DNA of 64,000 nucleotides from Octopus vulgaris. Lineage: Eukaryota. The notes under the pieces were generated by a model. It worked only from the letters and a program-made list of their open reading frames with translations. It was not told the origin of the DNA and made no database searches. The DNA lies in the NCBI GenBank assembly GCA_951406725.2, contig OX597831.1, positions 62,001 through 126,000 on the forward strand. Reading direction: 5' to 3'. This document shows positions 17,824 to 36,348 of this stretch, piece by piece. Every line of letters starts with the position of its first letter. The stretch's first letter is position 1. Made by a program: the position numbers and the translations under genes.

Positions 17824-20800
17824 TATATATATGCATAATTTACATATCTATATATACATAATTTGCATATATATATACATAATTTGCATATATATATACA
17901 TAATTTGCATATATATATACATAATTTGCATATATATATACATAATTTGCATATATATATACATAATTTGCATATATATATATACATAATTTGCATATAT
18001 ATAGATACATAATTTGCATATATATATACATAATTTGCATATATATATAGATAATTTGCATATATATATATACATAATTTGCATATATATATATACATAT
18101 TTTGCATATATATATACATAATTTGCATATATATATACAAATTTGCATATATATATACATGATTTGCATATATATATATACATAATTTGCATATATATAT
18201 ACATAATTTGCATATATAAATACATAATTTGCATATATATATATACATAATTTGCATATATATACATAATTTGCATATATATATACATAATTTGCATATA
18301 TATATACATAATTTGCATATATATATACATAATTTGCATATATATACATAATTTGCATATATATATGTATACATAATTTGCATATATATACATAATTTGC
18401 ATATATATACATAATTTGCATATATATACATAATTTATATATATATACATAATTTGCATATATATGTACATAATTTGCATATATATGTACATAATTTGCA
18501 TATATATATACATAATTTGCATATATATATACATAATTTGCATATATATACATAATTTGCATATATAAATACATAATTTGCATATATATATACATAATTT
18601 GCATATATATACATAATTTGCATATATATAAATAATTTCCATATATATATATAATTTGCATATATATATACATAATTTGCATATATATATACATAATTTG
18701 CATATATATGTACATAATTTGCATTTATATGTACATAATTTGCATATATATATACATAATTTGCATATATATGTACATAATTTGCATTTATATGTACATA
18801 ATTTGCATATATATATACATAATTTGCATATATATATACATAATTTGCATATATATATACATAATTTGCATATATATACATAATTTGCATATATATATAC
18901 ATAATTTGCATATATATACATAATTTGCATATATATATACATAATTTGCATATATATATACATAATTTGCATATATATACATAATTTGCATATATATACA
19001 TAATTTGCATATATATATACGTAATTTGCATATATATACATAATTTGCATATATATATACATAATTTGCATATATACATAATTTGCATATATACATAATT
19101 TGCATATATATATACGTAATTTGCATATATATATATAATTTGCATATATATATACATAATTTGCATATATATGTACATAATTTGGATATATATAAACATA
19201 ATTTGCATATATATATACATAATTTACATATATATACATAATTTGCATATATATATACATAATTTGCATATATATATACATAATTTGCATATATATACAT
19301 AATTTGCATATATATATATAATTTGCATATATATATACATAATTATGTATATATATATACATAATTTGCATATATATGTACATAATTTGCATTTATATGT
19401 ACATAATTTGCATATATATATACATAATTTGGATATATATATACATAATTTGTATATATATACATAATTTGCATATATATATACATAATTTGCATATATA
19501 TATACATAATTTGCATATATATACATAATTTGCATATATATACATAATTTGCATATATATATACGTAATTTGCATATATAGATATATAATTTGCATATAT
19601 ATATACATAATTTGCTATATATACATAATTTGCATATATATATACATAATTTGCATATATATAGACATAATTTGCATATATATATACATAATTTGAATCT
19701 TTATATACATAATTTGCATATATATATACATAATTTGCATATATATATACATAATTTTATATATATATACATAATTTGCATATATATATATAATTTGCAT
19801 ATATATACATAATTTGCATATATATATATAATTTGCATATATATATACATAATTTGCATATATATATACATAATTTGCATATATATGTACATAATTTGCA
19901 TTTATATGTACATAATTTGCATATATATATACATAATTTGATATATATATACATAATTTGTATATATATACATAACTTGTATATATATATACATAATTTG
20001 CATATATATATACATAATTTGCATATATATACATAATTTGCATATATATATACATAATTTGCATATATATATACGTAATTTGCATATATATATATAATTT
20101 GCATATATATATACATAATTTGTATATATACATAATTTGCATATATATATACATAATTTGCATATATATATACATAATTTGCATATATATATACATAATT
20201 TGAATCTTTATATACATAATTTGCATATATATATACATAATTTGCATATATATATACATAATTTGCATATATATATACATAATTTGCATATATATATATA
20301 ATTTGCATATATATATACATAATTTGCATATATATATACATAATTTGGATATATATATACATAATTTGCATATATATACATAATTTGCATATATATATAC
20401 ATAATTTGCATATATATATACATAATTTGCATATATATACATAATTTGCATATATATAAATAATTTGCATATATATATACGTAATTTGCATATATATATA
20501 TAATTTGCATATATAAATACATAATTTGCATATATACATAATTTGCATATATATGTACATAATTTGCATATATATATACATAATTTGCATATATATATAC
20601 ATAATTTGAATATTTATATACATAATTTGCATATATATATACATAATTTGCATATATATATACATAATTTGCATATATATACGTAATTTGCATATATATA
20701 TATAATTTGCATATATATATACATGATTTGCATATATACATAATTTGCATATATATATACATAATTTGCATATATATATACATAATTTGCATATATATAT

Positions 20801-21052
20801 ACATAATTTGCATATGTATATACATAATTTGCATATATATATACATAATTTGCATATATATATACATAATTTGCATATATAAATACATAATTTGCATATA
20901 TATATATACATAATTTGCATATATATATACATAATTTGCATATATATATACATAATTTGCATATATATATACATAATTTGCATATATATATACATAATTT
21001 GCACATATATATACATAATTTGCCTATATATACATAATTTGCATATATATAT
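17824..21052 (+). repeat. Octamer-containing minisatellite array 1, (TA)nCATAATTTGCA, 17-23 bp units
   Basis: Units read directly; ATTTGCAT present in most units. Confidence 0.96.
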
Positions 21053-21261
21053 GTATAGAATAAATAGAATATTTTAGATTCTATTTATAGATTCTATTTA
21101 TAGATTCTATTTATAGATTCTATTTATAGATTCTATTTATAGATTCTATTTATTTATTTATTTATTTATTTAATTATAGATTCTATTTGTAGATTCTATT
21201 TATAGATTCTATTTATAGATCCCATTTATAGATTCTATTTATAGATTCTATTTATAGATTC

Positions 21262-21292
<31 letters not shown>

Positions 21293-21780
21293 AGATTCTA
21301 TTTATAGATTCTATTTATAGATTCTATTTATAGATTCTATTTATAGATACTATTTATAGATATTATTTATTTATTTATTTATTGATTGATTCTATTTATA
21401 GATTCTATTTATAGATCCTATTTATAGATTCTATTTATAGATTCTATTTATAGATTCTATTTATTTATTTATTTATTTATTTATTTATTCTATTAGATTC
21501 TATTTTTAGATTCTATTTATAGATTCTATTTATAGATTCTATTTATAGTTTCTATTTATTTATTTATTTATTTATAGATTCTATTTATAGATTCTATTTA
21601 TAGATTCTATTTATAGATTCTATTTATAGATTCTATTTATAGATTCTATTTATAGATACTATTTATAGATTCTACTTATAGATTCTATTTATAGATTCTA
21701 TTTATAGATACTTTTTATAGATTTGAACCAGTTTGAACCGGTTTGAACCAGTTTGAACCGGTTTGAACTGGTTTGACCCG

Positions 21781-33931: not shown

Positions 33932-34249
33932 TATAGAATAAATAGAATATTTTAGATTCTATTTATAGATTCTATTTATAGATTCTATTTATAGATTCTA
34001 TTTATAGATTCTATTTATAGATTCTATTTATTTATTTATTTATTTATTTAATTATAGATTCTATTTATAGATTCTATTTATAGATTCTATTTATAGATTC
34101 TATTTATTTATTTATTTATTTATTGATCCTATTTATAGATTCTATTTATAGATACTATTTATTTATTTATTTATTTATTTATTCTATTTATAGATTCTAT
34201 TTATAGATCCTATTTATAGATTCTATTTATAGATTCTATTTATAGATTC

Positions 34250-34280
<31 letters not shown>

Positions 34281-34760
34281 AGATTCTATTTATAGATTCT
34301 ATTTCTAAATTCTATTTATAGATTCTATTTATAGATTCTATTTATAGATTATATTTATAGATATTATTTATTTATTTATTTATTTATTGATTCTGTTTAT
34401 AGATTCTGTTTATAGATCCTATTTATAGATTCTATTTACAGATTCTATTTATAGATTCTATTTATAGATTCTATTTATTTATTTATTTATTTATTTATTT
34501 ATTCTACTAGATTCTATTTTTAGATTCTATTTATAGATTCTATTTATAGATTCTATTTATAGTTTCTATTTATTTATTTATAGATTCTATTTATAGATTC
34601 TATTTATAGATTCTATTTATAGATTCTATTTATAGATACTATTTATAGATTCTACTTATAGATTCTATTTATAGATTCTATTTATAGATACTATTTATAG
34701 ATTTGAACCAGTTTGAACCGGTTTGAACCAGTTTGAACCGTTTGAACTGGTTTGACCCTG

Positions 34761-36348
34761 TATATATATGCATAATTTGCATATCTATATATACATAATT
34801 TGCATATATATATACATAATTTGCATATATATATATAATTTGCATATATATATACATAATCTGCATATATATATACATAATTTGCATATATATATATACA
34901 TAATTTGCATATATATAGATACATAATTTGCATATATATATACATAATTTGCATATATATATAGATAATTTGCATATATATATATACATAATTTGCATAT
35001 ATATATATACATATTTTGCATATATATATACATAATTTGCATATATATATACAAATTTGCATATATATATACATGATTTGCATATATATATATACATAAT
35101 TTGCATATATATATACATAATTTGCATATATAAATACATAATTTGCATATATATATATACATAATTTGCATATATATATACATAATTTGCATATATATAT
35201 ACATAATTTGCATATATATATACATAATTTGCATATATATATACATAATTTGCATATATATACATAATTTGCATATATATATGTATACATAATTTGCATA
35301 TATATACATAATTTGCATATATATACATAATTTGCATATATATACATATTTTGCATATATATGTACATAATTTGCATATATATGTACATAATTTGCATAT
35401 ATATATACATAATTTGCATATATATATACATAATTTGCATATATATACATAATTTGCATATATATATACATAATTTGCATATATATACATAATTTGCATA
35501 TATAAATACATAATTTGCATATATATATATAATTTGCATATATATATACATAATTTGCAAATATATATACATATTTTGCATATATATATACATAATTTGC
35601 ATTTATATGTACATAATTTGCATATATATATACATAATTTGCATATATATGTACGTAATTTGCATTTATATGTACATAATTTGCATATATATATACATAA
35701 TTTGCATATATAGATACATAATTTGCATATATATATACATAATTTGCATATATATACATAATTTGCATATATATATACATAATTTGCATATATATACATA
35801 ATTTGCATATATATATACATAATTTGCATATATATACATAATTTGCATATATATATACATAATTTGCATATATATACATAATTTGCATATATATATATAC
35901 ATAATTTGATATATATATATAATTTGCATATATATACATAATTTCATATATATACATAATTTGATATATATATATACATAATTTGCATATATATACATAA
36001 TTTGCATATATATATACATAATTTGCATATATATATATAATATATATATACATAATTTGCATATATATGTACATAATTTGCATATATATATACATAATTT
36101 GCATATATATATACATAATTTGCATATATATACATAATTTGCATATATATACATAATTTGCATATATATATACATAATTTGCATATATATATACATAATT
36201 TGCATATATATATACATAATTTGCATATATATATACATAATTTATATACATAATTTGCATATATATATACATAATTTGCATATATATATACATAATTTGA
36301 TATATATACATAATTATAGCTATATATATACATAATTTGCATATATAT
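34761..36348 (+). repeat. Octamer minisatellite array 7
   Basis: Same monomer; degenerates toward its 3' end. Confidence 0.93.

Follow-up and report, generated by a model that had tools for sequence, protein, structure and literature searches.

Satellite DNA dense in transcription factor motifs is known from human, where HSat3, a single pentamer-derived repeat of megabase size that lies beside the ribosomal DNA (rDNA), contains the TEAD core GGAATG among its motifs and has been demonstrated to bind factors (PMC11526998). Dense clusters of sites for one factor, HSF-1, are borne by Helitrons as heat-shock elements in Caenorhabditis (PMC6927752), and in a mollusc, the oyster, the central repeats of Cg_HINE (PMC7492417) are satellite-like arrays spread, as with HINE/DINE-1 (PMC4067079), by non-autonomous rolling-circle elements. 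Here we analyse a stretch of 64,000 nucleotides of Octopus vulgaris, hereafter the window (contig C18, positions 62001-126000, in a genome of 2.80 Gb and 227 contigs), and in it an array of 21-mers, the module D21. What lies behind this array is a modular satellite family carrying predicted sites for several transcription factors.

The octopus arrays resemble HSat3 in their density of factor motifs, the TEAD core included. As to the share of one motif's genomic copies, which is large in HSat3, the picture here is mixed: the arrays contain most copies of an extended 14-mer, but only about 2-3% of the bare octamers expected genome-wide. Unlike HSat3, they are built of about 14 distinct units of 9-74 bp, each with its own predicted site save for the modules named below, and assembled at many loci into patchworks that measure 1-100 kb. 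The megabase size and rDNA adjacency of HSat3 were not found here: the assembled arrays reach ~100 kb, though gaps may hide more, and none of the 40 5.8S rRNA matches listed lies beside an octamer locus. With the Caenorhabditis clusters they have in common that dense groups of factor sites are moved by Helitrons, but eight site types are concerned here, they are Helitron-borne only in part, and at the array of the window no part of the Helitron carrier described below was found.

The first-pass annotation had read positions 17824-36348 as about 14 kb of phased octamers with a modal period of 21 bp, running to an estimated 650-700 units. The array and its period are real: D21 covers 13,914 bp in 666 units, and 422 of 659 unit lengths are 21 bp. 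It is not a single continuous array: the 18.5 kb consist of seven higher-order units, each made of a short array of 10-mers (C10) at its start, a block of D21, and an array of 13-mers (A13) at its end. The unit does spell the octamer ATTTGCAT, which we take to be the POU/Oct octamer, with TAATTTGCATA as its extended form. The window holds 588 octamers, every one of them within 17824-36348 and on a single strand (42 per kb of D21 array), with 560 copies of TAATTTGCATA and 573 of TAATTTGCAT. Genome-wide, the extended-site 14-mer ATAATTTGCATATA has 4,396 matches against 108 for the reversed control, far above chance, and at least 3,595 of these 4,396 copies are located in the arrays described here.

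The remaining unit lengths are 19 bp in 146 cases, 23 in 45, 17 in 24 and 25 in 3; as 640 of the 659 thus fall between 17 and 25 bp in two-bp steps, length change is located in the (TA)n spacer, in agreement with the annotation. Some of this spread might be read error, the D21 blocks being known from the assembly alone. Blocks 1, 2 and 5 have runs of 33-37 identical units in common, so that the recurrent octamer variants are largely copies: ATTTGAAT does recur, with 13 copies, but with only two spacer types repeated in duplicated blocks, and ATTTACAT, with 4 copies, is rarer than the cores CATAATTTGGAT (10) and CATAATTTGCCT (7). A strand of three D21 units folds no better than its shuffles (z = 1.14), and a search for structured RNA gave 0 Rfam matches at gathering score.

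The annotation went on to propose that the octamers sit on one helical face, supporting cooperative loading or titration of POU proteins. At 10.5 bp per turn, the fraction of octamer pairs within 45 degrees comes to 0.66, 0.46, 0.34 and 0.20 at lags 1, 2, 3 and 5, against 0.25 by chance, and the mean phase cosine falls from 0.73 to 0.47, 0.26 and -0.07 at the same lags: neighbours do face the same way, but phase is gone within 3-5 units. The longest uninterrupted run of 21-bp units is 13. Of the 14 module periods, only 6 deviate by 1 bp or less from a multiple of the helical repeat (p = 0.08); on this test and the decay over lags, long-range helical phasing was rejected. The POU dimer sites MORE and PORE both have 0 copies in the window, which speaks against cooperative loading. 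As for titration, the fetched arrays contain 4,270 octamers, about 2-3% of the 155,000-180,000 expected genome-wide, a number estimated from base composition and from a background of 54 kb in which just 3 octamers occur; the idea is unsupported unless unassembled arrays are far larger. The octamer is also no better kept than the CATA flank, one of the outcomes that the annotation itself had named as refuting its reading: counted position by position, distinct variant contexts number 23, 9, 1, 3 in CATA (average 9.0) and 4, 4, 3, 1, 9, 17, 12, 12 in the octamer (average 7.8), whose most variable bases are C, G and C. Of 12 regions, only 8 show the octamer better conserved than the remainder of the unit. 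On phasing, dimer sites, octamer conservation and titration the proposal is therefore not supported, but its broader part, that protein binding is involved, is more credible than it was from the octamer alone, because the adjoining modules spell sites of other factors.

The catalogue comprises 14 modules: nine with a canonical site, namely POU, MEF2 (with two spacers), Grainyhead, TCF, TEAD (in two layouts), NRF1, and STAT and NF-kB; two with plausible sites, a 26/27-mer (NFI half-site, Onecut-like) and a 34-mer (E2F-, CRE- and DRE-like); and three, G13, M13 and R12-24, in which no site can be named. We take the motif CTA(W4)TAG, held with differing spacers by both A13 and B, to be a MEF2 site; it occurs 980 times in the window, 206 of them within 17824-36348. 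The motifs AACCGGTT and AACCAGTT of C10 are presumably Grainyhead-type sites, a reading for which an identification as CHR element was dropped, and GCGCATGCGC, contained in the 22-mer N22 at C18:1-9,200, is assumed to be an NRF1 site. At further loci, units of 52-74 bp combine TTCC[AC]GGAA and GGGRNNYYCC, presumably a STAT and an NF-kB site, and the TEAD core (GGAATG in PMC11526998) stands in a 9-mer (T9) and in a 58/59-mer. The module F22 couples AGATCAAAG to GCCGACA. TCF binds with an HMG consensus SCTTTGATS, and its helper consensus is GCCRAnW in worm (PMC3916239), GCCGCCR in fly and RCCG in vertebrates (PMC4154663). Like the response elements described in these two papers, F22 has its HMG site at most 10 bp from a helper, which fits GCCRAnW in 2,201 of 3,151 units; of the 1,165 units of the first set, 852 have RCCG at a distance of 5 or 6 bp from the HMG core.

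Two kinds of evidence bear on whether these likenesses are due to chance. A shuffled unit matches the site of its own module with probability 4.5e-5 to 5.4e-3, and the joint probability for seven modules, multiplied by the ways of choosing, is 1.6e-8 for 50 sites and 2.4e-5 for 150 distinct consensus sites. Conservation is a more independent test than this count. Conservation is higher at site positions than elsewhere in the unit in 19/19 regions for NRF1 (N22), 35/36 for TCF (F22) and 11/11 for TEAD (T9). Among the G/C bases of N22, 96.6% are conserved inside the site versus 83.1% outside, the CpG-rich core being kept at 93-98%; in B20 the core stands at 95-98%, the spacer at 64-71% identity with 31% deletion. 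The 1,743 bracketed units of A13 have their two most variable positions in the spacer, yet no base is better kept than the one in the middle of the spacer. Over five modules, variable positions fall outside the site with a combined p = 7e-4, for thresholds chosen afterwards.

The family is widely dispersed. D21 occurs at 10 loci on eight contigs (C1, C3, C4, C6, C8, C13, C14, and three times on C18), from which ~108 kb and 5,192 units were fetched, and its arrays adjoin assembly gaps on C1, C3 and C6. For F22 there are 981 exact 31-mer matches and at least 31 loci on C1-C9, at least 10 of them on C8 alone; for N22, 108 matches, in ~32 places among the matches listed. Module content, order and orientation change between loci, with frequent orientation flips, and the flanks are mostly unrelated repeat-rich DNA. 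A relative of D21 on C31, irregular and made mostly of ATAATTTGTATAC with four octamer copies, adjoins a 48-mer array and an NRF1 array; it would be an ancestral or a decayed form of D21. Its 1.2 kb compare with more than 100 kb for the octamer form. The assembled arrays measure 3-100 kb.

Part of this dispersal can be traced to a carrier. The first 14 TCF loci have no terminal inverted repeats or flanks common to the set, only L044 and L051 having one flank in common; parts of one small element, in turn, flank 7 of the 31 TCF loci and 12 of 17 NRF1 stretches. Helitrons start with A|TC at the 5' end and finish with a hairpin followed by CTAG|T at the 3' end. The small element has exactly such ends and is classed as a non-autonomous Helitron: all 18 exact 3' ends have a T after CTAG, ATC precedes a TA run in most 5' ends, and the 3' end is 89% identical to the one following a Helitron frame of 1,727 aa at C4:115.36 Mb (at least 150 Helitron matches were found genome-wide). 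An identity as HINE/Helentron was rejected, for the carrier lacks the TT target site described for them (PMC4067079) and shows canonical Helitron ends instead; it also differs from HINE in that several modules are joined, and the abstract on Cg_HINE (PMC7492417) reports no factor sites. No part of the carrier was found in the window, in C18:1-62,000 or in C18:20.25-20.32 Mb, a result that concerns this carrier and not other Helitron families. Helitrons have thus spread some modules, and a role as their source is unsupported.

Several other origins were considered and set aside. Arrays are not a normal part of autonomous Helitrons, judging from the 7.5 kb beside one 1,727-aa frame (5' end not reached), which contain none. 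A unique stretch in the complex at the end of C2, a candidate transposon end, belongs to a dispersed repeat of ~830 bp with TGT...ACA ends (40 of 1,503 candidates scored; captured at 3 of 13 copies examined). None of the 40 5.8S rRNA matches listed adjoins an octamer locus; tandem rDNA units lie ~18.4 kb apart at C20:23.96-24.07 Mb, with many dispersed 5.8S copies elsewhere. Searches of viral contigs with two patterns and of metagenome contigs with one returned 0 matches, leaving a viral or microbial source unsupported.

The explanation we favour, at a little short of an even chance, is that D21 belongs, as one module among several, to a modular satellite family dispersed over the genome, and that the units of this family spread or are retained because host factors bind them. 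Host transcription factors would bind satellite units, and bound units would be amplified or retained over others: chromatin may be opened, or forks stalled, by protein on tandem DNA, which would expose such places to unequal exchange and fold-back copying. Over time near-optimal sites would be selected, and no benefit to the host would be necessary. The arrays would recombine with one another into patchworks, of which pieces are reinserted elsewhere, with Helitrons and break repair as probable means of dispersal, and the 21-bp mode with its (TA)n spread may simply reflect inheritance from a founding unit plus slippage. Binding and preferential amplification are the steps that we infer. The modules and their sites are observed, as are the recurrence of modules in varied combinations and orientations, variation that avoids the site in four modules, and the transport of two modules by a non-autonomous Helitron. 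The nine canonical sites, the two-part TCF module, the non-palindromic POU, TCF and TEAD sites and the greater extent of the octamer form, compared with its ATAATTTGTATAC relative, also favour the explanation. In a fuller form, which we put forward tentatively and would not call probable, a mobile and recombining satellite kit may have converged, module by module, on near-optimal effector sites for Wnt, Hippo, JAK/STAT, NF-kB, MEF2, POU, Grainyhead and NRF1, giving reporter-like arrays that are either selfish through factor binding or signal-responsive nuclear platforms.

A number of observations weigh against this explanation. Factor occupancy of the modules is a prediction from sequence, and most factor names are presumptive. 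With a library of 828 motifs the joint probability rises to 0.41, which is not significant, so the site count alone is not proof; in human HSat3, a mere pentamer repeat, 42 of 828 motifs are enriched (PMC11526998). The panel of sites was picked after the modules were seen, and since it derives from the modules the control of unrelated tandem-repeat rows, favourable in outcome, is circular: 1 of 27 rows matched the panel, after removal by hand of the 26 of 53 that belong to the complex. Loci of common ancestry make the region counts non-independent. D21 itself has no site-centred conservation, the HMG site of F22 mismatches the first base (S) of its consensus, and its helper match, taken alone, has p = 0.04. 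Three of 14 modules have no site and two of 14 only a plausible one. Finally, two predefined tests added nothing in favour: 17 new TCF loci yielded no new module, and 17 new NRF1 stretches yielded one new non-transposon unit, a 48-mer without canonical site, plus units derived from Helitrons and from short interspersed elements (SINEs).

These doubts lend some weight to purely neutral satellites, in which short AT-rich or palindromic units prevail through slippage and fold-back copying and resemble factor sites by coincidence. The MEF2, NRF1, Grainyhead and STAT sites are indeed palindromic or nearly so, and the inversion centre of the window lies within such a unit; the non-significant joint test and the modules without nameable site fit as well, and so does the variability of the G/C bases of D21, which mutation bias predicts. 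We nevertheless think this unlikely: the POU, TCF and TEAD sites are non-palindromic, the TCF site comes with an adjacent helper, STAT and NF-kB sites share one unit, variable positions avoid the site in five modules, and the CpG-rich NRF1 core is kept. That the arrays are instead host-selected regulatory platforms, collecting signal-responsive factors and co-activators in nuclear hubs or acting as long-range enhancers, as has been proposed for human HSat3, would draw on the same sites as the favoured explanation; major signalling pathways end in these factors, the arrays hold most copies of the extended POU 14-mer, and four labelled organisms have sequencing runs that contain the stretch 38440-40160 (shares 0.55, 0.39, 0.26 and 0.22). 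But this too is improbable in view of module content, order and orientation that vary by locus, of flanks that are mostly unrelated, of octamer loci absent beside the 40 5.8S matches listed, with tandem rDNA on C20, and of SINE and Helitron pieces amplified by the same process.

Two further explanations fare worse. An array that loads or titrates POU proteins in helical phase, very unlikely in our judgement, can point to the number and density of octamers and to a 21-bp mode in 12 of 12 regions (share 42-70%), but the loss of phase, the absent dimer sites, the small share of expected octamers and a conservation not above that of the flank contradict it, and it ignores the interleaved MEF2 and Grainyhead blocks. 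A centromeric or pericentromeric satellite would account for the arrays adjoining gaps, for the higher-order repeats and inversions, and for a complex that reaches the start of C18, where no telomere repeat was seen in bases 1-62,000. The assembled arrays are of modest size, however, and one locus per chromosome, the expectation for a centromere, is contradicted by the dispersed D21, F22 and N22 loci, in particular the three octamer loci of C18 and the TCF loci of C8; we regard a centromeric nature as highly improbable.

The left 40 kb of the window are satellite and the right 24 kb repeat DNA rich in microsatellites; Table 1 gives the positions of the modules. To the left, the A13/B array extends as far as C18:9,200, where it meets the NRF1-type 22-mer, and NRF1 arrays, there and on C30, alternate with a SINE-derived unit of 152 bp. 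The F22/23 array that closes the complex contains 31 WTCAAAG and 30 GCCRAnW, with a short internal inversion near 39840-39925. Presence of the stretch 38440-40160 in the runs of four organisms speaks against an assembly artefact for that stretch, and no RNA run is among the runs listed as containing it. Between 38000 and 64000, frames of at least 120 aa are nearly all translated repeats, and one retroelement-like piece has no Pfam match.

Table 1. Satellite modules of the window, in window coordinates
Feature	Position	Strand	Remarks
D21 block 1	17824..21055	+	155 units; octamer ATTTGCAT on +
D21 block 2	21781..25075	+	160 units
D21 block 3	25810..26135	+	15 units
D21 block 4	26872..28545	+	81 units
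D21 block 5	29409..31570	+	103 units; identical-unit runs (37 and 33) common with blocks 1 and 2
D21 block 6	32304..33935	+	78 units
D21 block 7	34756..36348	+	74 units
A13 (CTATTTATAG-ATT) and B18/20 (CTATTTTTAG plus variable spacer) arrays, MEF2-type, with (ATTT)n runs	1..17765		orientation flip ~7685
Six A13 blocks (MEF2-type) between D21 blocks	~21070-21723, 25090-25754, 26150-26812, 28562-29356, 31581-32246, 33948-34703	+	
Seven short C10 arrays (Grainyhead-type)	17766..34755, arrays at 17766, 21722, 25755, 26813, 29355, 32245, 34702	+	TTTGAACCGG -> AACCGGTT/AACCAGTT
A13 block (MEF2-type)	36375..38446	+	
C10 arrays	38445..39032	both	enclosing G13 (GATGAAAATGTTT, no nameable site) at 38623-38756
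F22/23 array, TCF HMG site AGATCAAAG and helper GCCRAnW	39037..40156	+	variable spacer; right end of complex

Mobile elements were also met in and around the arrays. The A13 array is interrupted by a SINE piece at window 6130-6340, and an apparent 3' end of another Helitron-type element (hairpin, then CAAG|T, minus strand) lies beside a (TA)n run at 44720-44755. A 70-bp minisatellite at 45300-45487 has a palindromic core CGCCATGGCG, which we would loosely liken to RFX sites; a related array directly follows the octamer array of C4 (C4:29,967,561-29,968,161). On the same contig, at 29.920 Mb, Helitron Rep and PIF1 helicase frames lie in two pieces, with an NRF1 array 14 kb away and the octamer array of 28 kb at a distance of 19 kb, and at C29:27.64-27.83 Mb eight Helitron matches cluster in 190 kb. 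In the complex at C18:20.3 Mb, an A13 array harbours a long interspersed element (LINE) whose endonuclease-like frame is separated by one stop from a reverse transcriptase frame (RVT_1); the 3' tail of this element is also found at window 43230-43300, and an atlas search with its frame gave no informative taxon. Just right of this complex is an N-terminal frame that we liken to a pogo/Tigger transposase. Part of the ~830-bp repeat, which resembles a solo long terminal repeat, has been incorporated into the STAT/NF-kB complexes that lie close to the ends of C2 and C9 and into that on C31. Array ends often adjoin microsatellites (loci L041, L045, L046, L050, L051, L053, L054), as a raw observation.

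In the literature covered, from which subscription journals are mostly absent, we found no account of such arrays in any cephalopod, and searches with the literal motif strings returned only unrelated work. An annotation of Octopus vulgaris repeats lists 80 satellite families, without discussion of motifs in the portion available (PMC13282606); its consensus library may include these units. The main text of a centromere atlas preprint, as far as available, does not mention octopus (10.64898/2026.09.17.752431).

It is not settled why certain short sequences turn into satellites. The idea of octamer phasing is, by itself, of little consequence for this question. But eight factor sites each turned into a unit, with spacers drifting around them, would suggest that protein binding acts as the filter, and the site-less modules and the non-octamer relative of D21 provide built-in internal controls. 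If true, convergence on factor sites would be a form of repeat evolution not previously described as such, and why particular satellite sequences win would become directly testable. If the factors do bind, hundreds of kb of signal-responsive sites, dispersed and carried about by Helitrons, could alter gene regulation in the octopus or influence how its nuclei are organised.

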